A stretch of 64,000 nt of DNA from a virus. Taxonomy: Duplodnaviria; Caudoviricetes. Below are positions 9,330-41,650 of the stretch, in pieces (within the stretch, counting starts at the first letter, position 1; each line of letters starts with the position of its first letter). The notes under the pieces were generated by a model. That model saw only the letters and a list, made by a program, of their open reading frames with translations. It did no database searches and was not told where the DNA came from. The translations under genes were made by a program, and so were the position numbers. The stretch lies in the IMG/VR virus record IMGVR_UViG_3300025084_002866, positions 2,308 through 66,307 of that record; one strand, 5' to 3'.

Positions 9330-9334
9330 ACCCA

Positions 9335-9502: not shown

Positions 9503-9504
9503 AA

Positions 9505-10211: not shown

Positions 10212-10468
10212 AGAATAATAACTACATCAAACTCTTTAATGACTTTATATTCTTCTTTATTTATTTCAATATTAAATCCAGCGGCTTTGTCATAGTAAAC
10301 TTCATCACCTTTTTTTAATACTTTTACATCAGAGCCAGGTTCTAAAACCTTAGCTCTTCTGTATCTAACATCTTCTCTTTGCTTTTCAGCTAGAATTAAT
10401 CCACCTTTTGTTTGAACATCAACTTCCTTGATAGGTTCAATTACTACATACTTACCAATTGCTTTCAT
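10208..10468 (-). CDS. groES: Co-chaperonin GroES
   Basis: KAIGKYVVIEP...TKGGLILAE...KKGDEVYY; adjacent to groEL. Confidence 0.9.
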   Translation of the reverse strand: MKAIGKYVVIEPIKEVDVQTKGGLILAEKQREDVRYRRAKVLEPGSDVKVLKKGDEVYYDKAAGFNIEINKEEYKVIKEFDVVIIL

Positions 10469-12009
10469 ACTCTTACGTTATTAATAACACAATCAGTTGA
10501 TAATATAGTAGTAGCTACTGAAGCCGCGTTTGTCAATGCACTCTTAGTAACTAACAAAGGATCTATAATTCCGGCTTTTACCATATCCACCGTATTTCCT
10601 GTAACCACATCTAATCCTTTACCTTCTTCAAGCTTTTCTAATTTTTCAACACCCGCATTTTGCAATATCAACTCATAAGGTTTTCTTATTGCTTGATAAA
10701 GTATTTCTTCACCTATACAGGTTGGTTTTAAATTAAAACTAGCATTTAGTAAAGCTACACCACCTCCTGGCACTATACCTTCTTTAATCGCGGCTTTTGT
10801 AGCGCAAATAGCATCTTCAACTCTGTCTCTCTTCTCTTTAAGTTCTATCTCAGAGTTAGCCCCAACTTTAACTGTAGCAACTTTAGCTTTTAACTTAGCT
10901 AATCGTTTCTCTAGTCTAATAATAATATTAGGGTTTTTAGTTTCTTTTATATTTCTTTCTAACAAGGCGATAGTTTCTTTAACCTCTGCGTTGTCAGTTA
11001 AATCAACTTGTAGTATTGTCTCTTCGTGGTTTGTTACAGACTTAATACATGTACCTAAGTGTTCAGGTTGTATAATATCCATATCATCTCCTAGATCCTC
11101 ATTAATAAGTGTAGCGCCAGTAACAGCACATAGATCAGATAATACATCCTTCTTGCTGATTCCGTATATTGGCGCATCTACGATATTGACCTTTATATTA
11201 CCCTTCGTTTTATTCATAGCTAGCGCGGAAACTACTTGTGGGTCAACATCTGCAATGATAAGAAGACTCTTACCATTTTTTATAATAAATTCAAGGACTG
11301 ACTGAATCTTCCGCACGTTGGGTATTACTGATTCAACGATTAGAACCAACGGATTTTCAAGTTCAGCCGTTCCTTTTTCTTTGTTGGTAATAAAGTGGTT
11401 GTTCTTAAGAGCTCTGTCATATTGAACACCCTCTATTAACTCAACTACAGTTTCTGGTTGTTCGTTTGTTTCCATCATAACAACCCCTGTCTCATCTACT
11501 AATCTGAATGCTTCTCCTATGACCTTACCCAACTCTTTATCATTGTTAGCTGATATAGTAGCGACTTGGTCTATTTTCTTGCCAGTTACTTTCCTGGACT
11601 TTTTATTTAAATACTTTATAACTTTACTAACACCTGAGTCAATACCTTCTTTAACAGCTCTTGGATCATCTAGTAGCGAATGCTCTGTAGCTTGATCTAA
11701 TATAGCTTTAGCTAACACTGTGGCTGTAGTTGTGCCATCACCGGCGTCTGATACTGTTCTTTGAGCCGCTTGCTTTATTAATGTAGCTCCGATGTTTTCT
11801 AATGGATCTTGTAATGTTATACTATTAGCAACTGTTACTCCATCTTTTGTTATTTGTGGTGCGCCATTACCATCTTCTAGTATAACACATTTTCCACTTG
11901 CTCCTAGCGTTGAACCTACTGCATTGGTAAGTTTTTCAACCCCAGTTAATACCTGACCTCTAGCTGTATCGCCAAAAGTCAGGTTTTTAACTAACTTTAA
12001 TTCTTGCAT
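10465..12009 (-). CDS. groEL: Chaperonin GroEL
   Basis: ITKDGVTVA, AGDGTTTATVLA, GIVPGGGVAL, GIIDP motifs; 514 aa, no GGM tail. Confidence 0.97.
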   Translation of the reverse strand: MQELKLVKNLTFGDTARGQVLTGVEKLTNAVGSTLGASGKCVILEDGNGAPQITKDGVTVANSITLQDPLENIGATLIKQAAQRTVSDAGDGTTTATVLAKAILDQATEHSLLDDPRAVKEGIDSGVSKVIKYLNKKSRKVTGKKIDQVATISANNDKELGKVIGEAFRLVDETGVVMMETNEQPETVVELIEGVQYDRALKNNHFITNKEKGTAELENPLVLIVESVIPNVRKIQSVLEFIIKNGKSLLIIADVDPQVVSALAMNKTKGNIKVNIVDAPIYGISKKDVLSDLCAVTGATLINEDLGDDMDIIQPEHLGTCIKSVTNHEETILQVDLTDNAEVKETIALLERNIKETKNPNIIIRLEKRLAKLKAKVATVKVGANSEIELKEKRDRVEDAICATKAAIKEGIVPGGGVALLNASFNLKPTCIGEEILYQAIRKPYELILQNAGVEKLEKLEEGKGLDVVTGNTVDMVKAGIIDPLLVTKSALTNAASVATTILSTDCVINNVRV

Positions 12010-20683: not shown

Positions 20684-20989
20684 ATGACTGAAGACGAAAT
20701 ACAAAGATTAGCTGACTTAATATTCGATAGAATGATGGAGAAGCAAGAAAGACTAGATCAAGATTATTATGATCAAGTTAAAAAGCTACATGAAAATGGC
20801 TATGTAATCAGCGAAGCTAGTGATAGCTCAGGTTTAAACGACGAAGAAAAATTAGTCGGTGAACTAGCTAGATTACAAACTATGATGATGATACTAGAAG
20901 ATAAAGAAGAATACGAAAAAGCAGCAGTAATACAAAAGAAAATACAAGTAATAAATAAAAAACTAAATGACGGAACAGGAAAATATTAA
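20684..20989 (+). CDS. Hypothetical protein with C-terminal UVR-like coiled coil
   Basis: LEDKEEYEKAAVIQKKI resembles the UvrB/UvrC motif (E.YE.AA.I...I). Confidence 0.6.
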   Translation: MTEDEIQRLADLIFDRMMEKQERLDQDYYDQVKKLHENGYVISEASDSSGLNDEEKLVGELARLQTMMMILEDKEEYEKAAVIQKKIQVINKKLNDGTGKY

Positions 20990-21815
20990 AGCTATGCTAG
21001 CGCATAAATACAACGAAGATAAAGCAGATTACCCTGCACTTATACAACCAAAACTAGACGGCGTACGTTGTCTATTTACTGCAAAAGGCGCGTTCTCTCG
21101 TGCTAATAACCAGTTTATGAATGTAGAACACATTGAACAAGCTCTAAAGCCTTTCTTTGCAAAAAATCCTACAGCTATTCTTGACGGCGAACTGTACAAC
21201 CACGGACTAAAAGATGACTTTGAAAAGATTATATCTCTTGTTAAGAAAAGAAAACCAACAGATGCTGACAAAGCTGAAGCTAAAGAACTAGTGCAATACC
21301 ATATGTACGACGTAGCTAGTATGACAATAGCCACTTATGTAGACAGAAACTTGTTCTTGCTAGCTGAACCATCATTTATGAACAGCTCTATACTAGAAGT
21401 TACATCTACTAGATTAGCTATAGACTTTGACGACGCACAAAGATTTCATGCTAAAAACCTTAAATTAGGTTACGAAGGTTCTATATACAGAACACCATCT
21501 GGCAAGTATAAAGGTACAAGATCATGGGATCTTATGAAGTTTAAAGACTTTCACGATGCAGAAGCTACTATTATTGACTTTGTTCCAGGTAAAGGCAAGC
21601 GTGAAGGAACGTTAGGTAAATTTATTATGCAAGATGATGAAGGCGTAGAGTTCGGTTGTCCTCCTGGTAAAGGCTACGACTACGATGCTCTTGCTGAAAT
21701 GCTAGAAAATGCAGCACAATATGTAGGCCAACTAGCTACATTTACATACTTCGAGCGTACAAAAGCTGGAAGCTACAGACATCCACATTACAAATGCTTA
21801 CGTAACTATGAGTGA
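20967..21815 (+). CDS. ATP-dependent DNA ligase
   Basis: PKLDGVR (KxDG), LDGELY, EGSIYR, LMKFKD motifs and an OB domain. Confidence 0.93.
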   Translation: MTEQENIKAMLAHKYNEDKADYPALIQPKLDGVRCLFTAKGAFSRANNQFMNVEHIEQALKPFFAKNPTAILDGELYNHGLKDDFEKIISLVKKRKPTDADKAEAKELVQYHMYDVASMTIATYVDRNLFLLAEPSFMNSSILEVTSTRLAIDFDDAQRFHAKNLKLGYEGSIYRTPSGKYKGTRSWDLMKFKDFHDAEATIIDFVPGKGKREGTLGKFIMQDDEGVEFGCPPGKGYDYDALAEMLENAAQYVGQLATFTYFERTKAGSYRHPHYKCLRNYE

Positions 21816-25463: not shown

Positions 25464-25787
25464 ATGGCAGGAATAATAAAAGCAAGTATCAATTTAAATG
25501 CAATTGATAAATCAAAGATAATCACAGGCAAGAAAGGTAAATACCTACCTATTACGATTACAGTAAACGATGAGCCAGACCAGTTTGGCAATCAAGGTCC
25601 TGTGTGTATAGAACAAACAAAAGAAGAAAGAGAAGCTAAAACAGCTAAGGTATATTTAGGTAATGTTAAAGTCTTATGGACTAACGGAACATTCCCTGAA
25701 AAAGTACCATACGATAGTAACTTAGCTGCTCAACCACAAAACAATAAACCACAAGCGGTAGCTGCTGATCCAGATCTACCATTTTAA
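25464..25787 (+). CDS. Single-stranded DNA-binding protein
   Basis: OB-type N-terminus with a flexible tail ending DPDLPF; located in the replication module. Confidence 0.7.
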   Translation: MAGIIKASINLNAIDKSKIITGKKGKYLPITITVNDEPDQFGNQGPVCIEQTKEEREAKTAKVYLGNVKVLWTNGTFPEKVPYDSNLAAQPQNNKPQAVAADPDLPF

Positions 25788-27662: not shown

Positions 27663-27889
27663 ATGAGTATAGGCAAACAAAAGAAGATAAAGAAGCCTAT
27701 TCTTGGTGTATAAAACACGGTGTTAAAATAGGTATGCTAGCAGCAGGACCTGGCTTTGACAACGCTGCTTGGAAAATACGTATTGTAGCTAATAATAAAG
27801 AAATGATTAGCCCAGGAGAATATAGAAAACATGAAATACTGCCTAAATTATTTGAAATGTATAGGCATTATTATAATAAACGTAAATGA
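27641..27889 (+). CDS. Hypothetical protein
   Basis: 82-aa ORF, overlap-coupled to the next gene. Confidence 0.6.
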   Translation: MAKTVKLDEYRQTKEDKEAYSWCIKHGVKIGMLAAGPGFDNAAWKIRIVANNKEMISPGEYRKHEILPKLFEMYRHYYNKRK

Positions 27890-28572
27890 TAGAAAATAAA
27901 TTTAAAAATGCAGATGAAGCTTTTAACTTCTATTATGGTGTAATACCATACGAAGGAGAAAGATTTGATAATACTATGACCATGTTTAACCAAGGTTTTA
28001 CTATTGAAAATCCTGCAGATCGCATGATAACTAATGAAGCTAGAAACTTCAACGTTGAATATGCAGAAGCTGAATGGCAATGGTACTTATCAGGTAATAG
28101 ATCAACAGCAAAGCTTGGTGAACTATATGGTAAGATACCTAAGATATGGCAGGATATGTCTGATGGTAATGGTAATGTTAATTCTAATTATGGTTACCAA
28201 TGGGAAAGAGGTTATCAGCTAGACAGAGTTGTAGCTATGTTAAAAGATAATCCTAAAACTAGAAGAGCTACCGTATCTATATATGATGGTAAAGAAATAT
28301 CTAAATATAAATATGATACACCATGCACATACGCTGTACAGTTTACAGTTGTTAATAATAAATTAAATATGTGCGTCACTATGCGATCTAATGATCTCTG
28401 GTTTGGTTTCTGTATTGATCAGTATTGTTTCAGTAAACTACAAGAACTAGTGTCAGAGAGAACAGGATATGCAATGGGTACTTATTACCACTTTGCACAT
28501 AATTTACACATCTATGATGATCAGCTACCTGAAAAAAATACATTAACAGAAAGGGCTAGAATATATGGATAA
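27886..28572 (+). CDS. Thymidylate-synthase-fold protein of the dCMP hydroxymethylase (T4 gp42-like) type
   Basis: NSNYG, NP.TRRA, DTPCT (catalytic Cys), MRSNDLWFGFCID with Asp at the ThyA Asn177-equivalent position, NLHIY. Confidence 0.75.
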   Translation: MIENKFKNADEAFNFYYGVIPYEGERFDNTMTMFNQGFTIENPADRMITNEARNFNVEYAEAEWQWYLSGNRSTAKLGELYGKIPKIWQDMSDGNGNVNSNYGYQWERGYQLDRVVAMLKDNPKTRRATVSIYDGKEISKYKYDTPCTYAVQFTVVNNKLNMCVTMRSNDLWFGFCIDQYCFSKLQELVSERTGYAMGTYYHFAHNLHIYDDQLPEKNTLTERARIYG

Positions 28573-29425
28573 AATAAATTATTATTTATACCACATACCG
28601 GGTAAAAAAATAGGTGTTACACGTGATCTTATATCCAGAGTTGTTGACCAACAGGGTTACAGCTTAGACGAAGTAGAAGTTCTAGAACAAAGTACAGATA
28701 TAAATTATATATCCGACCGCGAGTTAGAACTTCAACAGTCTTACGGCTATAGGGTTGATAGACAAAAATACAAAGATTTATATATAAATAAAATAAAACC
28801 AAAACCAATGAATATAAACGCAACCGAACAAACCTCAACATTTCCAGTACCAGTATCTAAACTAAAAGGAAGACTCATGGATGACATGGGCAAGTCATGG
28901 GTAACATCTCACGGTAAGTTTGAGATTAATATGGATACCATTAAATGGATAATGGAAAATGTAAAGACATCTATGTATACTACAGAAAGATGTTATGTAT
29001 ACAATAAAGCTTTTGCTAAGTACTTTAACACGCCTAAGTTTCCTTTTGGTGAAGATGCTTACCAAGCTTACTATGATACTTTAAATAAAAGAGCTACGCT
29101 AAATGGTTCTATGGAGTATATGAAGACTGACAACAGGTTCCAGCTTATAAGAGACTGGGCTGGTGAAAGAGGTCTTTATACTAAAGGCGATACTAAAACT
29201 CAGTTCTGTAAGCTAATGGAAGAATCTGGTGAACTAGGTAGAGCTATACTTAAAAATGATAATGAAGAGTTTGTAGATGCTATAGGTGATATGGTTGTAG
29301 TGCTTACAAATCTAGCTCATCTTGGTGGCACAACTATTGAAGACTGTATCGATGCTGCGTACAAGGTTATATCTAAAAGAACTGGTAAGATGGTTAACGG
29401 AACATTTGTTAAAGATGAAAAGTAA
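28565..29425 (+). CDS. Fusion: GIY-YIG-like N-terminus, middle domain, MazG-like NTP pyrophosphohydrolase
   Basis: YLYHIPGKKIGVTRDL.SR at the N-terminus; KLMEESGELGRAI...DAIGDMVVVL at the C-terminus. Confidence 0.75.
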   Translation: MDKINYYLYHIPGKKIGVTRDLISRVVDQQGYSLDEVEVLEQSTDINYISDRELELQQSYGYRVDRQKYKDLYINKIKPKPMNINATEQTSTFPVPVSKLKGRLMDDMGKSWVTSHGKFEINMDTIKWIMENVKTSMYTTERCYVYNKAFAKYFNTPKFPFGEDAYQAYYDTLNKRATLNGSMEYMKTDNRFQLIRDWAGERGLYTKGDTKTQFCKLMEESGELGRAILKNDNEEFVDAIGDMVVVLTNLAHLGGTTIEDCIDAAYKVISKRTGKMVNGTFVKDEK

Positions 29426-29774
29426 GACTATATTATTCAGAGATCCTGTTGTAGAAAGAGTCTGCGATAAGTTCGTTACGAGATCAGATGTTGGCTACGC
29501 TAAGTATGGCAGAACATTACACGATGAAAGAACTGGTAAGCATAAAGATCTTGGTGGCTATTTAAATGATATACAAGAAGAGCTTATGGATGCTATTCTT
29601 TATATTCAAGCTGCTAAAGAAGAGTTTGCTGATAAATTAGCTGATGAAGCTATAGCTGAGGCTAATAAAGCTAGTTTCAGACCACCGCATCCTAGTGATG
29701 CTGGTCAGATGGATCTTGAAAGAGCAATATCAACAGCACAGCTAGACTGGGATGACAAGATCGCGCCGGTTTAG
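29415..29774 (+). CDS. Second all-alpha NTP-pyrophosphatase-like protein
   Basis: G..KYG.TL...YLNDIQEELMDAILY (EE..D motif); probable start MKSKT at 29415. Confidence 0.55.
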   Translation: MKSKTILFRDPVVERVCDKFVTRSDVGYAKYGRTLHDERTGKHKDLGGYLNDIQEELMDAILYIQAAKEEFADKLADEAIAEANKASFRPPHPSDAGQMDLERAISTAQLDWDDKIAPV

Positions 29775-30207
29775 CCGCAAGAAAGGTCCGGTAAGATCTA
29801 AAAAAACTAAGCATGATGGAATACAATTTGCATCAGGGCTTGAGAAGCATATGTATATAGCTCTTAAAAAAGCTAAACTGAAGGCACAATATGAGGGACA
29901 AACTTACGAGCTTGTCCCTTCTTTTAACTTCGAACAAGAAGCTTATGAACGACAAGGTAATGGTAAAGGTGAATACCGTAATAGAGGAAATAAAAAAATA
30001 CTTAACATTAAGTATACTCCAGATTTTATCGGAAGTGACTTTATTATTGAATGTAAGGGACGTGCTAATGAATCTTTTCCCATACGCTGGAAGTTATTTA
30101 AAGCTTACGTACATAAACACTTACCGAACATTACATTATATAAACCTCAAAACCAAAAGGAATGCGAAGAAACCGTGAACTTAATTCTTTCGAAAAGAAA
30201 GACCTAG
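29752..30207 (+). CDS. T7 endonuclease I-like Holliday junction resolvase
   Basis: FASGLE...YE...YTPDF...IIECKG motifs. Confidence 0.8.
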   Translation: MTRSRRFSRKKGPVRSKKTKHDGIQFASGLEKHMYIALKKAKLKAQYEGQTYELVPSFNFEQEAYERQGNGKGEYRNRGNKKILNIKYTPDFIGSDFIIECKGRANESFPIRWKLFKAYVHKHLPNITLYKPQNQKECEETVNLILSKRKT

Positions 30208-30335
30208 CAAGAAGGAAGTATGCTGAACGACAACTTCAGAAGTTTATAGACTGGAGTATAGAACAAAAAGGATATTTAAAATATAAAGAACTAATAAAAT
30301 ATGAAAGAAAGTACTTTGCTAGAGATGCAAAATAA
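30162..30335 (+). CDS. Hypothetical protein (57 aa)
   Basis: Read from sequence: MRRNRELNSFEKKDLARRKYAERQLQKFIDW.... Confidence 0.45.
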   Translation: MRRNRELNSFEKKDLARRKYAERQLQKFIDWSIEQKGYLKYKELIKYERKYFARDAK

Positions 30336-30528
30336 AATTGCGGCATTAACAAGAGTTGTGCAACAAATGATAAATGAAATGAATATACTTAGTACTACTG
30401 CAATAGGTACTTTAGAAACTGTAAAATTAATACCAGGCTACGATAGAGCTATAGAGTTCTTAAAAAAAGAAGCTGAAAAAATAGAAAAAGAAAAACAAGA
30501 TGGAGTTAAGCAACAAGATACTAAGTGA
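30301..30528 (+). CDS. Coiled-coil hypothetical protein
   Basis: 75-aa ORF upstream of RNR. Confidence 0.6.
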   Translation: MKESTLLEMQNKIAALTRVVQQMINEMNILSTTAIGTLETVKLIPGYDRAIEFLKKEAEKIEKEKQDGVKQQDTK

Positions 30529-32362
30529 TATAACAGTGTACATGAAGTACGCTAAATTTGTACCTGAATTAAATCGTAGAGAAACCTGGGATGAATTAGT
30601 TACAAGAAATAAAAACATGCATATAAAAAAATACCCAAAATTAAAAGATGAGATTGAGGAAGCATACAAAAGTGTATATAGCAAAAAGATATTACCGTCT
30701 ATGCGATCACTTCAGTTCGGAGGAAAACCGATTGAAATTAGCCCTAACCGCGTGTATAATTGCGCTTATCTACCTATTGATCATATTGATAGCTTCCACG
30801 AAACTATGTTTCTCCTGCTTGGTGGAACTGGTGTAGGTTATTCAGTACAGAATCACCACGTTAAGAAAATGCCACCTGTTAATAAACCTTACAAGAAAAG
30901 AATAAGAAGGTTTTTAATTGGTGATAGTATTGAAGGTTGGGCTGATGCTATTAAGGTTCTTATGAAGTCTTATATGGGCGAAAAGAGATCATCTAGCATA
31001 CAGTTTGATTTTTCTGATATTAGACCAAAGGGAGCTCAATTAGTAACGTCTGGTGGTAAAGCTCCAGGACCACAACCTCTAAAAGAGTGTATACTAAAAA
31101 TTAAAGGTATACTTGATGCTAAAGATGATGGTACACCACTCACTACATTAGAAGCTCATGATGTTGTATGTCATATTGCCGATGCTGTTTTAGCTGGTGG
31201 TATTAGACGTGCTGCTTTAATTAGTTTGTTTTCTGCTGAAGACAGTGAAATGATTAGTGCTAAGTCTGGTAATTGGTGGGAAACTAATCCACAAAGAGGT
31301 AGAGCTAATAATTCAGCTGTATTAATGAGACATAAAGTAACTCAAGAGTTTTTTATGGATCTGTGGAAACGTGTAGAGCTATCAGGATCAGGTGAGCCTG
31401 GTATATATTTTAACAATGATAAAGACTGGGGAACAAACCCTTGTTGTGAAATAGCATTAAGACCTTTTCAGTTTTGTAACTTATGTGAGGTAAATGCTAG
31501 TGATCTTGAATCACAAGAAGATTTTAACGATAGAGTTAGAAAAGCAAGCTTTATAGGTACACTACAAGCTGGTTATACTGACTTTCATTATTTAAGAGAC
31601 GTATGGAGAGAAACGACAGAGAAGGACGCCCTTATCGGTGTATCAATGACGGGGATCGGGAGTGCCGCTGTGCTGCAGTTGGATATGACGGCCGCTGCAA
31701 ATATAGTAAAAAGAGAGAATACAAAGACGGCGAAAGCCATTGGTATTAATCCAGCTGCAAGATGTACAACCGTGAAGCCTGCTGGGACGACATCTCTGGC
31801 ATTAGGAACTTCATCTGGTATTCATGCATGGCATGCTAATTATTATACACGTAGGATCAGAGTTGGTAAAAACGAATCTATGTATAAGTATTTATCAGAA
31901 AATCATCCTGAGTTAGTTGAAGATGAATTTTTCAGACCTCATGATACTGCAGTAATTAGTATACCTCAAAAAGCACCTAAAGGTTCTATTATAAGAACTG
32001 AATCACCGTTTGATTTACTTGAACGTATAAAGAAAGTTGCTAATGAATGGGTTAAGCCTGGTCATAGAAAAGGATCTAACACTCATAATGTATCCGCAAC
32101 TGTAAGTCTTAAACAAGATGAATGGGATAAAGCAGGTGAATGGATGTGGAACAACAGAGAACATTACAATGGTTTATCTGTATTACCTTATGATGGTGGC
32201 ACTTATACTCAAGCACCTTTTGAAGATATAGGTAAAGTATATTATGATATGGCTATGAAACATTTAAAGGAAGTTGATCTCAGCAACATTGTAGAAGTTG
32301 AAGATGAAACGGATCTTTCAGGTGAATTAGCTTGTGCAGGAGGAGCATGTGAGATAACATGA
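30500..32362 (+). CDS. nrdJ: Class II (adenosylcobalamin-dependent) ribonucleotide reductase
   Basis: ILPSMRSL, VYNCA, GEPG...TNPCCEI, TTVKPAGT, C-terminal LACAGGACEI; no small subunit gene nearby. Confidence 0.92.
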   Translation: MELSNKILSDITVYMKYAKFVPELNRRETWDELVTRNKNMHIKKYPKLKDEIEEAYKSVYSKKILPSMRSLQFGGKPIEISPNRVYNCAYLPIDHIDSFHETMFLLLGGTGVGYSVQNHHVKKMPPVNKPYKKRIRRFLIGDSIEGWADAIKVLMKSYMGEKRSSSIQFDFSDIRPKGAQLVTSGGKAPGPQPLKECILKIKGILDAKDDGTPLTTLEAHDVVCHIADAVLAGGIRRAALISLFSAEDSEMISAKSGNWWETNPQRGRANNSAVLMRHKVTQEFFMDLWKRVELSGSGEPGIYFNNDKDWGTNPCCEIALRPFQFCNLCEVNASDLESQEDFNDRVRKASFIGTLQAGYTDFHYLRDVWRETTEKDALIGVSMTGIGSAAVLQLDMTAAANIVKRENTKTAKAIGINPAARCTTVKPAGTTSLALGTSSGIHAWHANYYTRRIRVGKNESMYKYLSENHPELVEDEFFRPHDTAVISIPQKAPKGSIIRTESPFDLLERIKKVANEWVKPGHRKGSNTHNVSATVSLKQDEWDKAGEWMWNNREHYNGLSVLPYDGGTYTQAPFEDIGKVYYDMAMKHLKEVDLSNIVEVEDETDLSGELACAGGACEIT

Positions 32363-32662: not shown

Positions 32663-35600
32663 CTATCTAATTACTATTTTCTTTTTACCACTTTTAGCTT
32701 TAACTCCGGATCTTATTTTTATTTTTCTAGATTTAGGAGGTTGTATTTTTTCTTGATTTTTAATTTGCCAAGCTGGCCAACCTAATAATAAAGCTACAGC
32801 TTGCCAAGCTTCCGTATCAGCTTCAGCCGCGGCTTTTAAATTTTCTACTTTTCTATACATTCTATCTAAAGGAAAGTTTGTTGTAGCTGTTATAACTTTA
32901 GCTGCAGATTCATAAGCTGGATTATCTAAGCTAAATCCTTTTTCAAACACTTCTTCTTTTCGCTTTTTACTATCAAATGGATATGCAGCACTTTGAAACC
33001 TAGTTAATTTACTTTTTATTGAAGGTGAAAAATCTAACAATTTCTTATAAGCTTCTGAGTATTCAGGATTATCTTTTTTAGATCTATCATATATATCTAT
33101 ACCTAAATTCTTTATTACTTGCAGTGTTACTCCACCTAGTCCTAAGCCTCTTAGTTGAGAATCAATCATTCCATTAGCTACTTTAAATAACTTCTTATCC
33201 TTATCCTTATCACTTGCTTCTATTTGTTTAGTTGACATTTCGCTTTCATCGTCTCCAAAGCCTAATGCAAAAGCACCTTGCTGCAACCCATTAAACATCA
33301 TATTTTGTAAAAAACCGTAATAAGCTATTCTAGAAACTCTAATCCTGTTACTTTCAGCTAAAGTTTTGCCAGGTATTCTTCTTTTATTAGCAATGTCTTG
33401 AATATCTCTTTTTTGCATACGAGCATACTGCATAGGAGTATTAACGTATTGAAGAATAACCCTACCTAAATCAGTTGACTGTTGTTGGGATATTTTACTA
33501 GGATCAGAAGATTGCTGAGATAATTCAGAAACGTCTCTCCATTCTTTCATTGCTATTTCCTCAGCTTCTTTTTCTGTTTTGCCTTCTTTCTTGATTAGAT
33601 CTTTAATTCTATTTCTGTAAAACAAAGCTCCTCCAGAAGCTATAGCAAAGCTATCAGCATACTTAGTTGGTGCGTATCCTTTTTCTAAAATATAGTTTAA
33701 AGCTGCTTTTGCTTTGTTCTTAGAGGTTTTAGCTGCGTCAGCTATTTCAGATTCGTTTATATTAAGCTTAAGCCCATTACGTCTATCTTTTAAATAGTCT
33801 GAATTTATTAGCTTTGTAAAATCTTTCCAATATTGAGGTTGATTTGCAAATGCTGCACCTGCTTTAGCTGGGTTGTTAAAACTCCAATTAATGTAATTAG
33901 CAGAAGATATTGTTTGCAATAAAGCTGATCTTGTATTTAAAAACATTGTAACTGCTGTAGAGTTGTTTATGTAATCTAAAACATCATTACTTAATTTATT
34001 TCCACCTGAAACTCTATTGCTACCAGAATTCATTCTAGTTAAAGAGTTTTCCAAAGCTAACCTATATTTTTTACCATAAGCAGCTTCTAACTTATTTAAA
34101 TTATCTTTAGAAAATATAAGATCTTTGTTTTGATTAAAATCTTGTAAATACTTACTTCTTTTATCTGTATTTAATAAATCCATTAAATCAGTGGTTATAG
34201 TTCCTACAGCCCAGTTTTTACCAGGTTTAGAGTAACCGTCACCTTTTGTTATACTTAAAATTTGATCTGCAAAAGCTTGTAGTTTTGGGCTTTCAGATAC
34301 TATATCATTTAACTCTTTTAAATCTGTTTTAGAAATACCAGGTATTTCTTGACCTGTTTTGTTCCAAAGATACGTTCTTACAGCTTGCTCATTTGTAAAC
34401 CCTGACTCTGTTTTAAGTCTTAAGTCTTTAGGAACATCTAGCTGCTTTTTTAAAGCTTTAAAATCATCCATTAGATTAACTCTGTCAGTAGATAGATTTT
34501 CCATAGCTCTACTATATGGATTTAATAAATTGTCTTGGTAAAACTTCATGTGAGCCTCTCCCTTTTTACCTTTTCCTAGAGTAGTATATAATAAACCAGT
34601 GAAATCTTCAGCAGATGGAGGTATAAAAAACTTTTGTTTTCTTGCTTTATTACCTCTAATTTCTGCTTTTATATCAGAAAAAACTTTTTCAGCTCCAATT
34701 CCTGTAGATTCTTCTATGTTTTTATTAAACTCAGCTGATAAGTCTTGAGAAGCATATGCTTGTTGAGTTTTTGATTTAACATCTAAAACTTCTAAAGCGT
34801 CTCTAACTGCTTTAACATTTTGAGGCGCATCATCTGCAAAGTAAAAATCATTATAACCTTCAGCTGCTTTGTTAACTAGCCAATCAGCTTTAGCCTCACC
34901 TGTAGAATTACCTAATCCAGTTATATTTTCTAAAGGTATTTCAATACCCATAACATCTAAAAACTCTTTAATAGCTGGAGCAGATTCAGGAGCTCTAGCA
35001 GTTAATATAAACATATCTCTATCGCCTGCTGATTCTTTAATCTTTTTCATCAGTTCAAACAAAGGTCCTTTCTTACCTTCAACAACTCTATTAAAGTCGG
35101 AAAAATCCATTTTCCAACCAGCATCAACTAGCCCCTTGCCTTGCTTAGCAAATTCTTCAGCTGTTAAAACTTTTCTTTCACCATCTTTTTCAGCGAAAAC
35201 TTTACTATTTGTTCTAGCAACTGTATCATCAAAGTCAAATACTCTAGCTTTTTTCACTGTCTTGTTTCTAACTCTAGCATTAGATATAGCTTTGTCCCTA
35301 GTCTTCAATGTATTTACAACTTGAGTTTGATTTAAATCTTTACTAGACATAGAAGCTTCTTTAAGAACTTCTACATTATTTTTAACTACCTCTGTTCTAG
35401 GATATTCTATTTGTTGTTCTACTTCTACTTTTGCTTTACTTGGTGGAAATTTAGTAAGAATATTTTCAGCTTCTTTTTTACCATATCTTTTTAATAATAT
35501 TTTAGCAATTGTATTTACATTTTTACCAGAAAAATCACGTAAAGATAAAGTTCTTGAAGGAGATCCTGGATTCAAAAAAGTAGTTAATAATTCGTCATTA

Positions 35601-38600
35601 ATTATAGGATCTATTGAACCACCAGTTCCTCCGTATTTAGGATCATCCTTTACTGCTCTATCAGCATCAGAAGTTAAAGATTGTGAAACACTATTGGTAA
35701 TATTTTCTAGTTCTTTCATGAACTTTTTATTTCCAATTTTATTTTTAGATTTTAAAAGTAAATTAACAAATTCTGTATTATATATAAATAAGTCTTTATT
35801 ATGCTCATTATGAAATCTTTTACCTCCAGGTCTTGTAGCTTCTCCAATTAAAGATAGATACTCCATAGGTGCAAGACCTTTAATTATACCTGTGGCTTGA
35901 CCTGTTTGTATTTGAAGAAAAGTTATTATATCTTCTAATGTTTCTTTTGTAGGGCTTTCTTTATAAACTTCTGATAGTTTTTCGTAAGTATACTTTATAG
36001 CTTCTCTATTAGCATCCATAGTTCTTTCATAAGCATCAGGTAATAATTTACCATTAGCATCCACTAATTTAGGATTGCTTAATTGATCTCTACCAAAAGA
36101 AGTTAAATAACTTTTATACTGCTCTCCTTGAGAAGATTCCCAAAGAGGAAACCTAACCTTAGCAGCTTCAATTTCTTTTTCCCATTTTTTCTTAAAACCT
36201 GTTTCGCTATAGTTAACCATGAAAACATCATCCATAAAATCTAGTCTTTCACCTTTGCTTTCAATTTTACCAAACACATCTTTAAATTCAGCTATACCAA
36301 AGTATTCAGCATCTCCTTTTTTTCCTTTATATTTTTTAAGACCAAAAGTTTTCAACGAACCTTCTCCAAAAGTATTTCTTACATACTTTGAAAAATTATC
36401 ATTTTCTAATAATTCAGGAAACTTTTTAAGAATTTTATTAAAACTTTTTATAGTTCTATCTCTATTTTCTGCACTAGTTACGTTTTTACTTCTAGTACCA
36501 GGGGCTATTGGTTGTAAATCTTTAAAGCCAGATAGCTTTCTTAAACCAGGTAATGCTTTGCTCCATCTAGATATGCTTAGCTCTTCTTCTTTTTCTATTT
36601 CTTCAAGAGTCATGTCCTCTCGTCTAGCTTGTTTCTCTCTTTCAATTTTTATTTTTGGATCAACTACAAATTTTTGCAAGTGGCTAACTACAGCTTTCTT
36701 TTGTTCGTCAGTAGTAGTAAGAGACAATTTAGTAATAAAGTCACTAGCGTTTCTTTGAGCAGCTAGAGCTTTAATATCTTTTGGTGTTAATTTTTCTCCT
36801 GAATTTAATTTCTCAACTACTTCTTCTAAAAAATCTACATCGTTTAAACTCATGGAAGCTAAGTTTTCAGACTTACCAGATTTTAAATCTTCTATTTCGT
36901 TAGCTGTTAATTCTTTTATTTTTCTTATCTGAGCGTTAGTTACAGCTTTTCCATCTTGATGTATTAATGCTTTTATTCTTTGATCAATCTTTCCGTTTTC
37001 TTTTAAAGTTTCAAAAGAACCATCTTCTTTTATACCAAAATATTCTAGAAATTTACTTCTATTAAATGGTAGTTTTTCTTGACCTTTTAATCCTGCTCCT
37101 GTACTTACCCTATCTCCTTGTTTGTAAAAAGCGTCTAATAAAACTTTTTGAACGCCAGTAGAAGTTTCTTTTAAAGATTCTTTAGCTGTCTTAGTGGTTT
37201 TACCATCAGGTAAAAGTTGATAAAGCATTTCAGCATTATCTACAATATACTGTTGAGCGGAAGTCACTTCTTTCTGAGATAATCTAGTTGAGGTTTTACC
37301 TTTAAAAGTTCCATCTTCATTATTAATTTTACCGTCTTTAACTCCAAAATCTTTACTTATGTTAGATAAGTCAGGAGTTGTTTTATAACTTTCTATAATT
37401 AAATTTGAATCTTCAATTCTATTATCTAAAAGCCTAGCTGATGCTTCTGGCTCTTGCAACACTGTGGTAACATCAAGTTTTCCTGTAGCTGGATCAATAA
37501 ATTTTTCCGGTATAGAACTAACGTCTCCACTGGTACTAAAAGTTTGATCAACAAGATTTTCTAAACCTCCTGATTCTCCGTCCCCTAAGTCTGACTCACT
37601 AATCTCTCTATCAAATGATCCTACTTTTTTTAATGTATTTACAACCTGTTTTGTGAATCCCATGTTTAAATAAGCGCCAACATCGTTTTTATTAGCGTCG
37701 TATCTCTCAGCGTATTCATAGAGTTTTAATTGTAATTCAAAAGCAGCTTCTTCTTTTATATCTTTTGACAATTTAAATCCAGTAATTGTTTCATATTTAT
37801 TTAATGAATTATATATTAAATTTTTATTATTGTCAACTATTTGATCTCTTTGTTTTCTATTCGGTTTACCGTCTGGATTTTTAAGTATTTCAGCTCTTAA
37901 TTTTCTATTATCTTCAACTATTTCTTTTGTAGTTTTCTTAACTACTGTACCTTCTAAATCTAAAGAAGATTTAATTTCTTTTTCAATATTAGCTTTATCA
38001 GCTTTTCTATTAGCTTCTGCATTACTTAAGTTATCTATATCAACATCTGGAATACTTTTTTTATCGGTAAAACCCATAAGCTCAGATACAAGACTTTCAG
38101 CTCCTCCTTGTCCTCTAATTCCTTTCCTAGATAATATACCTATATTTTCAACTACATCTTTAGCTGTTTTAGGTAATGGACTTTTTACTCCAGTTTGAAT
38201 TAATATGTCTTTAATTTCTAACTTTATTTCATTTAAAAGACTAGAAGCCAAGGCAGGATTTGTATAATAAGCTTCTGGACTACTTAAATACTCACCCATA
38301 AAAGATAAATATTCTTCTGCTAATAATTTTTTACCTTCTGGAGCGTTTGTATTTATATTATATTTATCTATAATTCTTTGTTCTAATTCTTTACCACTAA
38401 ACTCTCCAAACTGGTAATCATAAAATTGAGACATACCGTCTTTTGCTAAATTTTCAAGCGCTGCTGGATTTTTTTTATAGTACTCTTTTTGAAGTAAATG
38501 AGTTAACTCATGTATTTCTTTTCCTGGCGTATAAAGATCCATGTCTATAGTTATAGTGTTTGTATTAGGATCAAACTCAGCAGTAGATTTACTTTTTCTA

Positions 38601-41600
38601 AAATTATTTTTTCTAAATCTAGCTCCTCTACCAACCACAACGTTGACGCCTTTAAAATCTGGACTAAATGCTTGTATGCCCTTAACCCAAGGATCTACGT
38701 ATCTTTTTGTAAGATTGTTTTTAAAAGCTTCAACTTCTTTTTTATATTCTTTTACTGTTTCAGGATTTGTGCTTTCAAACTTTTCTCTACTTGGTGGAGT
38801 TAGTTCTACATAAGCTATTTCATATTGTATTAAGTTTTGTAACTCATTTACACCAGATGTTAAGTTTTCTACTTGTTCTTTTTCTTTAGGGCTAAGATCC
38901 TTAAGATCTCTTAGTAATCCAGGAGCTTCTTTTTCTCCATTAATCAGTCTAGTCGGTCCTCTTCTAACATCTTCTATCCTCTTATTAAGCTTATTTCTTA
39001 ACTCTATCTTTTTACTTGTAGGAATAACATCGTTCCCTTTAAGACCCATAGCTCCAAATCCGGAAAATATACCAGTTTGAACCATAATTCTTTCTTCAAG
39101 AGGACCTAACTTTCCATAAAGTTCCTCTATTGAAGTTTCAAAATTTTTCTCTCCTCTTATACTTGCAGAAACAGCACTAACTGCACTTGCGACTTCTGAA
39201 GACACAGCTCCTAATGGCCCAGATGCTATTAGTTTTTGAAAAACAGGTTGAAGAGCTCTATAGTTTTTACCCCATTTTATTGTTGTTCTACCAAGAGATC
39301 CAACACTAAAGAAAACAGCGCCAGTTCCGTACTCAGCATCTAAAGCTATTTGCATTTGTATATCTTCAACAATAGCACCCATTACAAACTTCTTAATACC
39401 TTTCAAGCCGTTATAATACTTTTTCCAACCTAAAGCGTTTAAAGCTTGTCCACCACCCATTAGTAAAGGCATTTCTGGAATGAAACTACCAATACCTTGA
39501 GCTATTTGATTACTTACAGATACTTTTACAGCTTCTTTTTGCTCTGGTGTTAATTCTATTTCAACACCTGACAATGACTTTACTTCATAAGCACTTGTTA
39601 CTATAGCTGAGTTTATAGCAGCTATTCTGTCTTGGGGTGACATTCCTTTTGAATATACAATATTTTTAGCTTCTTTGTCATTATATCCAAACTTTTCTAA
39701 AGTACTTACGAATGTAGAAGTTGCAAGAGTCTTTAAAAAACCATCTTTCTCTATAGCTGATATGTCTACGTTCCCAGCATACATGCTCCAATAAGCATTA
39801 GCTAAGGTTTCTACTTCATCATATTCTTCGTTATATATTTTAATAGCTTCAACATCTTGCTTGCTAGCCATGTTAAGCATTTCGTCAAAAAAGCCCTCAA
39901 AATCTCTTTGATCTATTCCTAATTGTCTCAACTTAAGTAAAGATATTTCTACTTCACCATTTTTATCAACATTGATACCAGCAGTTCTAAGATTATTTTT
40001 TAAAGTAGTATAACCACTTTCAAAGCCTGAAGGAATTTTTAATTTTATTTTAGACTCACTTCCTTGCTTACGCAATGTCTGTAAATTTATTATTTCTTTA
40101 TTGAATATATTACCAATAGCTTCTCTTTGAGTAAGTAAAGGATTAGACTCTTGTTCTGATTTTATTGAATCTTCAATTCCAGATTGTGCATCATCAGCTA
40201 TGTTAATCAACTTATCTATACTTGCTTCAGAAAAACCTCTATCGTTAAAAAAGTTTTTAGTTAATTCTCCGGCTGTAGTTTTAACTTCTACTGAACCAAA
40301 GTCCTCACCAAACCTACCTGGTATATTGGTTGTTGTTGTAGCATTCTCTTCTCTTTGAAGCTGTAGTACTTGATAATTACTTTGCTTATTAAACAACTGT
40401 AAATCTAAAGCTTTTAATTCATTCTTTTTAGCTTCTTCATCATATTCAATTGTTAACTCTTTCTTATTAACTTGATCAATTTTATTTTGTAATATGTTTA
40501 TATCTTTTGATATATCACCTTGCTTAATACTTAACTCTTGGTTTTTTAATTCTTGCTGTGTTAATTTAGAATTAAAATTACTTATTGTTTTACTTTTAAA
40601 ATCTTCATCAACTTCTATACTTGAAAGACTTATGGATCTATTTTCGTCATACTCTTGCTCTATAAAAACTTTATTTTCTGCCATTAAGTTATTATACATG
40701 TTGTCAAAAGAGCTTTTATATATACCTATCTCAGTATTAGTTCTTAACTCATCAATTAATTTTGCTTTAATTTGATCATGGTTTTCCGCGGTTAAAGTAA
40801 ACTTTTCTTTACCTGGTGTATTTTCATTACCAATACCATATTTCCAAGGGTTTCTAAAGGCATCTTTTTGTAATATATCTAACTCTGTTATTAAACTAAC
40901 CGCTTGTTCTTTGCTAGGATTTACAGCATCACCCGCACCTTTAAAATCACCTGTTGGCTTCTCGCCAACTGGTCTTATTTTTGGTTGATCATCATATGTG
41001 CCAATTTTTATTGACCTAATTCCATCTAGTCCAACTTCGCCAGTTGCTTTATATATTAAGTTAGACTCTTCGTTAAACTCAGGATTATCGTTTATAAAGT
41101 TAATAAAGCTATTGTATGCTTTTTTACTCTCACTTAGTGCATCTTCTTCTATTAAACCTTCTTGACCTATAGGTATGTTAACATCTCCACTACTTCTTCT
41201 ACTCTTAGTATTATATATAGTTCCTAGCTTTATAGTTTCATTTGTTCCAGTCTCTTTATTTATAACAGTAAAGCTATCACTACCTGGCTCAACTTGTTTG
41301 AAAACAAAATTAGGATATAAAGAATTTAGTTCAGGTACTATTTTTTCTTCACTTTTTAATTTAAAGTCTTCAAAAGATATTTTAACGTCAACGTCTTCTA
41401 TAGGTGGTATTTTAATAATATCCTTGTGTCTTTCTAAATACTCATCTATACTTAATCCATCTACATCTGCAGCTTCTTGTATTTTATCGGTAGTAAAAGA
41501 AGCACCTTTATACTTATATTTTACAGGTTCTTTTTCAACAGTATCTTCCTCTGTCTCAACTTCAATATTGTTTTTTTCTTCTGAATTAACACCCACTTCC

Positions 41601-41650
41601 TCAACTATTTCTTCAGTTGGTGTATTTTCACTAAGTACTTCTTCAATCAT
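32663..41650 (-). CDS. Giant virion (probably ejected) polyvalent protein
   Basis: 2995 aa, last gene of the structural arm; contains HELTH zincin motif, a sigma-region-2-like segment and a complete HAD domain. Confidence 0.8.
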   Translation of the reverse strand: MIEEVLSENTPTEEIVEEVGVNSEEKNNIEVETEEDTVEKEPVKYKYKGASFTTDKIQEAADVDGLSIDEYLERHKDIIKIPPIEDVDVKISFEDFKLKSEEKIVPELNSLYPNFVFKQVEPGSDSFTVINKETGTNETIKLGTIYNTKSRRSSGDVNIPIGQEGLIEEDALSESKKAYNSFINFINDNPEFNEESNLIYKATGEVGLDGIRSIKIGTYDDQPKIRPVGEKPTGDFKGAGDAVNPSKEQAVSLITELDILQKDAFRNPWKYGIGNENTPGKEKFTLTAENHDQIKAKLIDELRTNTEIGIYKSSFDNMYNNLMAENKVFIEQEYDENRSISLSSIEVDEDFKSKTISNFNSKLTQQELKNQELSIKQGDISKDINILQNKIDQVNKKELTIEYDEEAKKNELKALDLQLFNKQSNYQVLQLQREENATTTTNIPGRFGEDFGSVEVKTTAGELTKNFFNDRGFSEASIDKLINIADDAQSGIEDSIKSEQESNPLLTQREAIGNIFNKEIINLQTLRKQGSESKIKLKIPSGFESGYTTLKNNLRTAGINVDKNGEVEISLLKLRQLGIDQRDFEGFFDEMLNMASKQDVEAIKIYNEEYDEVETLANAYWSMYAGNVDISAIEKDGFLKTLATSTFVSTLEKFGYNDKEAKNIVYSKGMSPQDRIAAINSAIVTSAYEVKSLSGVEIELTPEQKEAVKVSVSNQIAQGIGSFIPEMPLLMGGGQALNALGWKKYYNGLKGIKKFVMGAIVEDIQMQIALDAEYGTGAVFFSVGSLGRTTIKWGKNYRALQPVFQKLIASGPLGAVSSEVASAVSAVSASIRGEKNFETSIEELYGKLGPLEERIMVQTGIFSGFGAMGLKGNDVIPTSKKIELRNKLNKRIEDVRRGPTRLINGEKEAPGLLRDLKDLSPKEKEQVENLTSGVNELQNLIQYEIAYVELTPPSREKFESTNPETVKEYKKEVEAFKNNLTKRYVDPWVKGIQAFSPDFKGVNVVVGRGARFRKNNFRKSKSTAEFDPNTNTITIDMDLYTPGKEIHELTHLLQKEYYKKNPAALENLAKDGMSQFYDYQFGEFSGKELEQRIIDKYNINTNAPEGKKLLAEEYLSFMGEYLSSPEAYYTNPALASSLLNEIKLEIKDILIQTGVKSPLPKTAKDVVENIGILSRKGIRGQGGAESLVSELMGFTDKKSIPDVDIDNLSNAEANRKADKANIEKEIKSSLDLEGTVVKKTTKEIVEDNRKLRAEILKNPDGKPNRKQRDQIVDNNKNLIYNSLNKYETITGFKLSKDIKEEAAFELQLKLYEYAERYDANKNDVGAYLNMGFTKQVVNTLKKVGSFDREISESDLGDGESGGLENLVDQTFSTSGDVSSIPEKFIDPATGKLDVTTVLQEPEASARLLDNRIEDSNLIIESYKTTPDLSNISKDFGVKDGKINNEDGTFKGKTSTRLSQKEVTSAQQYIVDNAEMLYQLLPDGKTTKTAKESLKETSTGVQKVLLDAFYKQGDRVSTGAGLKGQEKLPFNRSKFLEYFGIKEDGSFETLKENGKIDQRIKALIHQDGKAVTNAQIRKIKELTANEIEDLKSGKSENLASMSLNDVDFLEEVVEKLNSGEKLTPKDIKALAAQRNASDFITKLSLTTTDEQKKAVVSHLQKFVVDPKIKIEREKQARREDMTLEEIEKEEELSISRWSKALPGLRKLSGFKDLQPIAPGTRSKNVTSAENRDRTIKSFNKILKKFPELLENDNFSKYVRNTFGEGSLKTFGLKKYKGKKGDAEYFGIAEFKDVFGKIESKGERLDFMDDVFMVNYSETGFKKKWEKEIEAAKVRFPLWESSQGEQYKSYLTSFGRDQLSNPKLVDANGKLLPDAYERTMDANREAIKYTYEKLSEVYKESPTKETLEDIITFLQIQTGQATGIIKGLAPMEYLSLIGEATRPGGKRFHNEHNKDLFIYNTEFVNLLLKSKNKIGNKKFMKELENITNSVSQSLTSDADRAVKDDPKYGGTGGSIDPIINDELLTTFLNPGSPSRTLSLRDFSGKNVNTIAKILLKRYGKKEAENILTKFPPSKAKVEVEQQIEYPRTEVVKNNVEVLKEASMSSKDLNQTQVVNTLKTRDKAISNARVRNKTVKKARVFDFDDTVARTNSKVFAEKDGERKVLTAEEFAKQGKGLVDAGWKMDFSDFNRVVEGKKGPLFELMKKIKESAGDRDMFILTARAPESAPAIKEFLDVMGIEIPLENITGLGNSTGEAKADWLVNKAAEGYNDFYFADDAPQNVKAVRDALEVLDVKSKTQQAYASQDLSAEFNKNIEESTGIGAEKVFSDIKAEIRGNKARKQKFFIPPSAEDFTGLLYTTLGKGKKGEAHMKFYQDNLLNPYSRAMENLSTDRVNLMDDFKALKKQLDVPKDLRLKTESGFTNEQAVRTYLWNKTGQEIPGISKTDLKELNDIVSESPKLQAFADQILSITKGDGYSKPGKNWAVGTITTDLMDLLNTDKRSKYLQDFNQNKDLIFSKDNLNKLEAAYGKKYRLALENSLTRMNSGSNRVSGGNKLSNDVLDYINNSTAVTMFLNTRSALLQTISSANYINWSFNNPAKAGAAFANQPQYWKDFTKLINSDYLKDRRNGLKLNINESEIADAAKTSKNKAKAALNYILEKGYAPTKYADSFAIASGGALFYRNRIKDLIKKEGKTEKEAEEIAMKEWRDVSELSQQSSDPSKISQQQSTDLGRVILQYVNTPMQYARMQKRDIQDIANKRRIPGKTLAESNRIRVSRIAYYGFLQNMMFNGLQQGAFALGFGDDESEMSTKQIEASDKDKDKKLFKVANGMIDSQLRGLGLGGVTLQVIKNLGIDIYDRSKKDNPEYSEAYKKLLDFSPSIKSKLTRFQSAAYPFDSKKRKEEVFEKGFSLDNPAYESAAKVITATTNFPLDRMYRKVENLKAAAEADTEAWQAVALLLGWPAWQIKNQEKIQPPKSRKIKIRSGVKAKSGKKKIVIR

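Follow-up and report, generated by a model that had tools for sequence, protein, structure and literature searches.

A probable T4 gp42-type dCMP hydroxymethylase beside a MazG-domain fusion in an uncultured marine phage of flavobacteria

The window analysed here, a stretch of 64,000 nucleotides corresponding to bases 2308-66307 of the 66,307-bp IMG/VR virus record IMGVR_UViG_3300025084_002866, carries among its replication genes an open reading frame (ORF) for a protein resembling thymidylate synthase (TS), followed by a MazG-domain fusion and, farther downstream, by a class II ribonucleotide reductase (Table 1). Members of this TS-like family bear the JGI label 'thymidylate synthase', and the locus raises the question of whether the enzyme makes thymidylate or modifies cytosine and, in the latter case, whether the modified base reaches phage DNA. 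A preliminary description, made from the letters of the DNA, had proposed a cytosine-modification pathway yielding 5-hydroxymethylcytosine (5hmC), 5-methylcytosine (5mC) or another C5 adduct. Judging from its sequence, the enzyme is very probably a deoxycytidine monophosphate (dCMP) hydroxymethylase of the phage T4 gp42 type. The full explanation, in which this enzyme, a MazG-type deoxycytidine triphosphate (dCTP) pyrophosphatase (dCTPase) and the reductase cooperate with host kinases to place 5hmC in phage DNA, is the one we favour, although with reservations. It represents a known phage strategy in a new lineage and no new kind of system.

The translated ORF contains YKYDTPCTYAVQF and MRSNDLWFGFCID, as originally stated, and matches the Pfam family PF00303 (Thymidylat_synt) with an E-value of 3.4e-30. 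Its best relatives of solved structure are the cytidine monophosphate (CMP) hydroxymethylase MilA (4e-21) and T4 gp42 (4e-18), and every thymidylate synthase ranks lower. In HMMER alignments with solved structures, MRSNDLWFGFCID is paired with MRSNDVVFGFRND of gp42, NSNYG with NSNYG, NPKTRR with NPDSRR, and DTPCT with DFMCT, confirming block by block the NSNYG, NP..RR, DxxCT and MRSND..D motifs that had been described as gp42-like. The final Asp of FGFCID falls on T4 gp42 Asp179 and on the equivalent Asp of MilA, and the entry for the gp42 D179N mutant (6l18) shows N in the same column. This residue is D178 in query numbering and occupies the position of ThyA Asn177, as had been proposed, while C147 is the catalytic Cys. 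In addition, E63, Y102, R126, C147, R167 and S168 align with reference catalytic and phosphate-binding residues. In ThyA numbering, E58, Y94, R126, C146, R166, S167, D169, H207 and Y209 are kept, and V93, L143, H147 and N177 are replaced by S, D, T and D, respectively.

The substitution at position 177 extends to the nearest relatives. Among the best 150 matches of a HMMER search over 1.84 billion cluster representatives (50% identity), 132 were at least 190 aa long, and in a 142-sequence alignment including added reference enzymes all of these nearest representatives (132/132) carry Asp in this column. Asn occurs there only in the added reference enzymes acting on deoxyuridine monophosphate (dUMP), namely SPO1 gp29, that of a ViI-like phage, that of Abidjanvirus and Lw1 td. 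DTPCTY, NSNYG and MRSND...D are likewise retained in 120 of the 120 family clusters listed (77-91% identity). According to Hardy, Santi and Graves (1992) and Liu and Santi (1992), respectively, both cited in PMC8670742, an Asp in place of Asn177 confers selection of cytosine, and this exchange by itself suffices to make a TS act as a dCMP methylase. Contigs containing modified cytosine show their strongest association with positions 177 and 147, with 147 the second most discriminating (PMC8670742), and position 147 is Thr in the query, likewise in gp42. The best score against the NCBIfam ThyA equivalog models is 96.5 bits, compared with a cut-off of 327, and all scores lie below the respective cut-offs, which span 108-576. 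These features indicate a protein that is predicted to be cytosine-directed and gp42-like.

The remaining substitutions bear on the product. From the T4 ternary complex, a dCMP hydroxymethylase (dCH) signature has been proposed that combines Ser-x-Tyr with an Asp located three positions ahead of the catalytic Cys and activating the substrate water; the T4 D145N mutant is dead, and the C-terminal tail with which ThyA closes its site for hydride transfer is missing from dCH (PMC6400193). The same L143D/E rule is applied in a 2026 NAR paper (PMC13326640). The query carries the Asp (D144-T-P-C147, equivalent to T4 D145) at a position, 143 in ThyA numbering, that is Leu in three canonical TS and Asn in PaMx74, and its S100-N-Y102 corresponds to T4 Ser94-x-Tyr96. 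Only 18 residues follow the H-x-Y motif (Y209), compared with 28 in T2 gp42, 17 in 44RR gp42, 55-59 in canonical TS and 61 in PaMx74. The combination of Asp at L143, Ser-x-Tyr and a missing C-terminal tail argues for hydroxymethylation rather than methylation. Of the hydroxymethylated and methylated products considered initially, the former finds its signatures in the protein, whereas the traits that set a methylase apart are absent. With regard to the substrate, Ser167 and Arg126 of dCH and TS are replaced by Ala and Lys in the CMP-preferring MilA and BcmA, and the A176S/K133R double mutation shifts MilA to dCMP (PMC5175136). Both deoxyribose determinants are present in the query, Ser167 as S168 and Arg126 (T4 counterparts Ser169 and Arg123'), suggesting dCMP, not CMP, as the substrate. 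Moreover, 5-hydroxy-dCMP synthases of the RB69 gp48 type carry D169N, whereas the corresponding Asp170 in MRSND of the query is kept, likewise in 132 of the 132 representatives, indicating that the query is no such D169N enzyme. Every defining feature of gp42-type dCH that can be read from a sequence was found in the query.

Phylogenetic analysis placed the protein accordingly. In a 61-row maximum-likelihood tree, canonical TS lie at the base, followed by PaMx74 and then by a hydroxymethylase clade that splits in two. The dUMP hydroxymethylases form their own branch (support 99), and the query lies in the other, all-Asp177 branch, within a 27-row group that includes T2 and 44RR gp42 (SH-like approximate likelihood ratio test, SH-aLRT, 98). 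Canonical TS and PaMx74 fall outside the clade of the query, and an earlier tree of 76 rows agrees. Because the searches were quick and some branches are long, the tree is consistent with the residue evidence and does not constitute an independent proof.

Other activities of the enzyme can be weighed against these observations. The closest analogue with a different product is the module of Xp12 and PaMx74 (Pamexvirus), which consists of a PRA-PH pyrophosphatase, a TS homologue with Asp177, a dCMP deaminase and a dihydrofolate reductase (DHFR). PaMx74 is reported to replace C entirely with 5mC, and its enzyme is reported to be a homologue of a confirmed 5-methyl-dCMP synthase. The two phages resemble the present one in having a pyrophosphatase adjoining a cytosine-directed TS homologue and in also encoding, at other sites of the genome, a class II reductase and a ligase. 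A dCMP methylase of this type, leading to 5-methyl-dCMP and 5mC DNA, was left open by the preliminary description and would accord with the conversion of TS by the Asn177 replacement alone. However, the Pamexvirus enzyme, whose homologues make 5-methyl-dCMP, retains the ThyA tail (61 residues in PaMx74), has Asn at 143 and Ala for the Ser before Tyr, and lies outside the hydroxymethylase clade, and the query shares none of these traits. The Pamexvirus DHFR, deaminase and DNA polymerase are not present in the window phage, and beside the query gene neither of the DHFR and dCMP deaminase genes of PaMx74 occurs. Thus, of the traits of a 5-methyl-dCMP synthase, Asp177 is present, but a non-acidic residue 143, a ThyA-like tail and the DHFR and deaminase neighbours are not, and we regard this activity as very unlikely. 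A slight probability also attaches to another substrate or C5 product, such as CMP (a MilA-like enzyme of RNA or nucleoside metabolism), 5-hydroxy-dCMP or an undescribed adduct. By score, MilA leads the matches of solved structure (78.8 bits, compared with 69.1 for gp42), and TS homologues have recently been found to make unexpected products, e.g., 5-hydroxycytosine (5hoC). On the other hand, Ser167 and Arg126 replace the Ala and Lys of the ribose-preferring MilA and BcmA, D169 stands in place of the diagnostic Asn of 5hoC synthases, and the gene is located in a phage replication operon. Finally, an ordinary TS converting dUMP to thymidylate, as the JGI naming and the Pfam family would suggest, has a nearly negligible probability in view of Asp for Asn177, Thr for His147, Asp for Leu143, the missing tail, the ThyA equivalog scores far under cut-off and the position of canonical TS outside the query clade.

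The gene following the hydroxymethylase candidate starts 8 nt ahead of its stop codon and encodes a 286-aa fusion of three parts, with a middle segment of no assigned function, whose residues ~186-286 (nt 29120-29425) form a MazG domain. The fusion exceeds the Pfam cut-offs of both MazG (PF03819, 25.2 bits, cut-off 22) and PRA-PH (PF01503, 23.7 bits, cut-off 21.3), matches MazG-like PHROG families (6e-34 and 5e-30), and its C-terminus matches the Sulfolobus MazG-type protein 1vmg (4e-4). In the MazG family, the metal-binding motif follows the rule EXXE(12-28)EXXD. A complete metal-binding motif (ESGE...EEFVD) is present in the fusion as E220-x-x-E223, 11 residues and E235-x-x-D238, and is invariant in the family. 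The C-terminal part of the ORF is therefore recognizable, by profile and motif, as a genuine MazG/PRA-PH pyrophosphatase domain. Its position next to the TS-like gene is typical of cytosine-modification modules: PRA-PH adjoins Asp177 TS homologues on modified contigs (MetaGPA, PMC8670742; a later NEB preprint), and the pyrophosphatase beside the PaMx74 TS homologue is a PRA-PH protein with a weak alignment (E 0.008) to the MazG domain in the region of the catalytic helices. By analogy, a role as dCTPase is a candidate function of the domain. Six-frame searches with the MazG domain found no match in the genomes of T2, PaMx74, VPE25, BF486P2 and SPO1L2, nor did a PF03819 search of T2, PaMx74, VPE25, BF486P2 and Chryseobacterium phage MA9V-2. 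The N-terminal ~75 residues of the fusion (window 28565-28800) show a Y.Y...KIG.T...R...E pattern. In ESM Atlas clusters neighbouring this N-terminus, 11-48% of members carry T5orf172, which we take to be a GIY-YIG-like domain, and residues 1-175 matched nothing in Pfam even at E 5. As a lead only, the N-terminus may be T5orf172/GIY-YIG-like and possibly represents a nuclease module joined to the pyrophosphatase. The AlphaFold2 model of the fusion (mean pLDDT, the predicted local distance difference test, 40.8), built from a shallow alignment of 85-100% identity, is too poor to use.

The preliminary description counted two nucleoside triphosphate (NTP) pyrophosphatases, of which only the fusion withstands comparison. 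The next gene, encoding a 119-aa protein, was rejected as a second pyrophosphatase: hhalign against the MazG fusion family gave 3%, and its EELMD lacks an upstream EXXE. Its start at 29415 follows the gene call in related contigs, and a start at 29322 is less favoured. None of the protein's 4711 database relatives carries a Pfam domain; in PHROG it matches two families only, both of unknown function, ESM Atlas returned unnamed viral clusters only, single-sequence and profile searches of Pfam, NCBIfam and PDB gave nothing significant, and a six-frame search of five reference phages found no match. The AlphaFold2 model (pLDDT 57.1; shallow alignment, 61-96% identity) is not usable. The family shares invariant KYG, EELMD and FRPPHPS motifs and an acidic C-terminal tail. 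This tail, DWDD.IAPV, is reminiscent of the partner-binding tails of single-stranded-DNA-binding protein (SSB).

The reductase had been named NrdJ. It is indeed a class II enzyme encoded in the same strand block, but it appears closer to the monomeric ribonucleoside triphosphate reductase (RTPR), scoring 267.7 bits against NCBIfam TIGR02505 (E 1.9e-79) and 47.8 bits against NrdJ_Z. Its only PDB match is the L. leichmannii ribonucleoside triphosphate reductase 1l1l (1.3e-39), and its C-terminus, CAGGAC, contains the redox Cys pair. If the reductase acts on NTPs, the phage makes deoxynucleoside triphosphates (dNTPs) directly.

In the pathway we propose, the enzyme would take dCMP and methylene-tetrahydrofolate, with Cys147 attacking C6 and Asp178 reading and protonating the cytosine. 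Asp144, aided by Ser100 and Tyr102, would activate the water that hydrates the exocyclic methylene, giving 5-hydroxymethyl-dCMP (5hm-dCMP) rather than 5-methyl-dCMP. The MazG domain would most likely convert dCTP to dCMP and pyrophosphate, removing the competing canonical nucleotide and feeding the hydroxymethylase. Deoxynucleotides, perhaps already as triphosphates, would come from the RTPR-like reductase, and if CTP is reduced to dCTP in this way, the hydroxymethylase would need the dCTPase step. Because neither a kinase nor a DNA polymerase of the phage was found, phosphorylation and incorporation of 5hm-dCMP would depend on host kinases and the host replisome, and the outcome would be phage DNA in which 5hmC takes the place of some or all of the C, with no further decoration detectable. 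Bacterial cells do incorporate 5-modified deoxycytidine into plasmid DNA when given a TS homologue and a suitable kinase (PMC13326640; bioRxiv 2024.12.05.627091). We infer, at slightly better than an even chance, that the virion DNA carries 5hmC.

Several points weigh against this pathway, the main weakness of DNA replacement being the absence of a detectable deoxynucleoside monophosphate (dNMP) or thymidylate kinase. PHROG and Pfam scans of ORFs of at least 90 aa revealed no kinase, glycosyltransferase or DNA polymerase, in agreement with the initial impression, and the T4-style set of a dNMP kinase, one or more glucosyltransferases and an own DNA polymerase was thus not found. Six-frame searches of the whole 66.3-kb genome detected no thymidylate kinase (PF02223), ThyX or family-A polymerase (PF00476), and in a P-loop scan the sole convincing Walker A motif was that of the primase-helicase itself, besides a few chance-looking matches. 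T4 requires its kinase gp1 since the E. coli kinase rejects hydroxymethyl-dCMP. A kinase adjoins the enzyme in Chryseobacterium phage MA9V-2 and in the contig of one homologue (P0124), and in the published in vivo assays the TS homologue is expressed together with a phage dNMP kinase (PMC13326640; bioRxiv 2024.12.05.627091). Beyond the kinase, the residue rules express correlations once one leaves T4, MilA and the sets that have been tested; a search with the MazG domain detected no similarity in the T2 genome, so that the analogy with gp56 is one of superfamily and position; the reductase scores below the 340-bit cut-off of TIGR02505, and the phosphorylation level of its substrate is unreadable from the sequence; and the sequencing runs that hold the stretch consist of Illumina reads or Logan contigs, which are blind to base modification.

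It may therefore be that 5hm-dCMP is made but serves something other than bulk replacement of C, such as partial substitution, a drain on the dCTP/dCMP pool as a means of shut-off, or an unrecognised downstream step. Besides the lack of a detected phage kinase, DNA polymerase or 5hmC-decorating transferase, such a role would suit an exchangeable accessory cassette, given that the nearest complete relatives are without a ThyA-family gene and one has ThyX in the equivalent place. We nevertheless consider it unlikely. Contigs with experimentally demonstrated modified cytosine are strongly enriched in Asp177 TS homologues (PMC8670742), PaMx74 with its reported full replacement also lacks a detectable kinase, the adjoining MazG domain suits the exclusion of a canonical nucleotide, and the TS-like gene is strictly conserved over a very large family. 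A thymidylate-kinase-like gene was detectable in neither Bacteroides phage BF486P2 nor PaMx74, indicating that its absence from the window phage is not exceptional; the description of the system as 'unusually minimal' was accordingly overstated. Returning to 5hmC in phage DNA, a bolder version of the pathway would achieve the substitution with only three phage enzymes, together with host CMP/dCMP kinase, nucleoside diphosphate kinase and Pol III. The RTPR-like reductase would make dCTP and the MazG domain would return dCMP, while the GIY-YIG-like domain would degrade unmodified host DNA, both feeding the hydroxymethylase. This version is doubtful; if true, it would be the smallest known nucleotide-level system of C replacement, and flavobacterial host kinases would accept 5hm-dCMP, unlike those of E. 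coli.

Comparison with known systems places the cassette near the first steps of the T4 hydroxymethylcytosine pathway, which it resembles in its working, and not among full T4-style systems. The T4/T2 gp42 enzymes (EC 2.1.2.8; PDB 1b5e, 6a9a, 6a9b) share with the query the TS fold, the catalytic Cys, Glu60, Asp179, Asp145, Ser94-x-Tyr96, Ser169, Arg123, a short C-terminus and the same well-supported clade, but identity is ~34% over 75% of the length, and the query has 228 aa compared with 246 in gp42. Unlike T4, the window phage has a 66-kb podovirus-type genome in which a gp1 kinase, glucosyltransferases and an own DNA polymerase were not detected, and unlike in T2, the partner pyrophosphatase is a MazG fusion without detectable similarity to the T2 genome. 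An association of TS (Asp177), PRA-PH/MazG and DNA ligase has been described for cytosine-modified environmental phage contigs (MetaGPA, eLife 2021, PMC8670742). The window phage appears similar in combining PF00303 with Asp177 and a non-His residue 147, PF01503/PF03819, and PF01068 with PF14743 (the ligase domains for which MetaGPA reported enrichment on such contigs) in one replication block, but it has no accompanying dCMP deaminase or carbamoyltransferase. The closest homologue in a cultured phage is BF486P2_00032 of Bacteroides phage BF486P2 (226 aa, 48.6% identity), which is annotated as a deoxycytidylate 5-hydroxymethyltransferase, has identical signature residues and likewise comes from a phage with a Bacteroidota host. 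Unlike the window phage, BF486P2 encodes an additional, very divergent TS-like paralogue, and in place of MazG it has a dUTPase-family gene. This paralogue (9156-9917), which lies beside the dUTPase-family gene, has Leu for Glu58 and Leu for Gly173 and keeps the Cys, Asp143 and Asp177.

Further homologues occur in varied settings. In Chryseobacterium phage MA9V-2 (218 kb, Flavobacteriales host), a thymidylate kinase gene is directly followed by that of a 447-aa Asp177/Asp143 TS homologue with a long C-terminal extension (2216-4152), a pairing absent from the window phage. A 48%-identical homologue (P0129) on a 39.9-kb Logan contig is translated correctly only with TGA read as Trp and is located between a methyltransferase-like gene and a dCMP deaminase gene; the contig thus appears to come from a recoded phage that has a module for modifying cytosine. 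For three distant homologues (P0121, P0125 and P0131), the contigs are shorter than 2 kb and the gene context is uninformative.

The 66,307-bp record is rated complete by CheckV, and the 2.3 kb beyond the window hold only the end of one tail-fibre-like gene. Matches of the terminase, the portal and several families labelled 'virion structural protein' are to podoviruses of Flavobacteriia. The terminase is 65% identical to that of the uncultured freshwater podovirus MW202828 and 45% identical to those of Elemovirus phages (Flavobacterium), with further matches to phages of Cellulophaga, Tenacibaculum and Maribacter, and a megablast of 24 kb against the phage collection gave no match. The stretch is present in at least 21 sequencing runs, 14 of which hold at least half of its sampled words; the TS-like family numbers thousands of sequences in databases, with Tara among their sources, and the gene order of the cassette is kept on marine contigs of 44-68 kb. 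The window phage is an uncultured and very common ocean phage of flavobacteria. A ThyA-family gene is absent from its nearest complete relatives, MW202828 and an Elemovirus, and MW202828.1 carries at the corresponding end of its replication block (28958-29632) a gene annotated as FAD-dependent thymidylate synthase (ThyX). Together, these observations suggest that the cassette is a lineage-specific swap in a nucleotide-metabolism slot at the end of the replication block, which appears exchangeable. No DNA polymerase is annotated in MW202828 either, and its absence may be common to the whole phage group. Literature searches on 5hmC or dCMP hydroxymethylase in flavobacterial or Cellulophaga phages, and on the lineage of the window, returned nothing relevant.

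If the favoured explanation is true, very abundant ocean phages of Flavobacteriia carry 5hmC in place of C, with a bearing on marine phage-host arms races (restriction, type IV systems) and on nanopore base-calling, library preparation by restriction or tagmentation, and bisulfite or enzymatic conversion. It would also show that base replacement may need only a few phage genes, and the locus offers a clean natural case on which to test published rules for predicting the products of TS homologues from their residues. Across the whole genome, 4-base palindromes are near expectation (GATC 1.03, GGCC 0.88, CCGG 1.21) and only CATG is depleted (0.67). These counts give little sign of restriction-site avoidance, and they are compatible with protected DNA but are no evidence for it.

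The cassette closes a plus-strand block at 20.9-32.5 kb that starts with genes for DNA ligase, a DNA-binding protein, a sigma factor, Erf and a DUF3799 exonuclease and continues with a small protein with an SSB-like acidic tail, a primase-helicase, two small ORFs and the TS-like gene. The MazG fusion, the 119-aa ORF, a DUF1064 resolvase-like protein, two small ORFs and the reductase complete the block. From the TS-like gene through the fusion and the 119-aa ORF to the DUF1064 gene, successive genes overlap by 8, 11 and 23 nt; the DUF1064 gene overlaps the 119-aa gene yet stands outside the nucleotide pathway. A promoter and terminator scan gave counts not above shuffled expectation.

Table 1. 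Coordinates in the window of the hydroxymethylase candidate and associated genes.
Feature	Position	Strand	Basis
Homologue of dCMP hydroxymethylase (T4 gp42 type), 228 aa	27886..28572	+	PF00303, signature residues, tree
286-aa fusion with C-terminal MazG/PRA-PH domain, candidate dCTPase	28565..29425	+	Pfam MazG, PRA-PH
Conserved 119-aa protein, no assigned function	29415..29774	+	gene call in related contigs
DUF1064 / Holliday-junction-resolvase-like protein	29752..30207	+	PF06356 2.6e-9; phrog_190 3.4e-13
Predicted adenosylcobalamin class II ribonucleotide reductase, monomeric RTPR type	30500..32362	+	phrog_367 1e-129
ATP-dependent DNA ligase	20967..21815	+	PF01068, PF14743; phrog_114 6e-70

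The small protein between the exonuclease and the primase-helicase (107 aa, window 25464-25787) has no family match, and its C-terminus (...DPDLPF) resembles the acidic tip of bacterial SSB. Elsewhere in the window, a pair of genes at 10465-12009 and 60285-60878 encodes a GroEL-like chaperonin (phrog_5725, 2.5e-131) and a GroES-like co-chaperonin (phrog_13932), both of which are shared with MW202828 and Elemovirus. In addition, a 2995-aa virion protein (window 32663-41650) weakly matches the polynucleotide-kinase family phrog_415 over residues 2124-2326, a region that includes its FDFDDT (HAD-type) motif.

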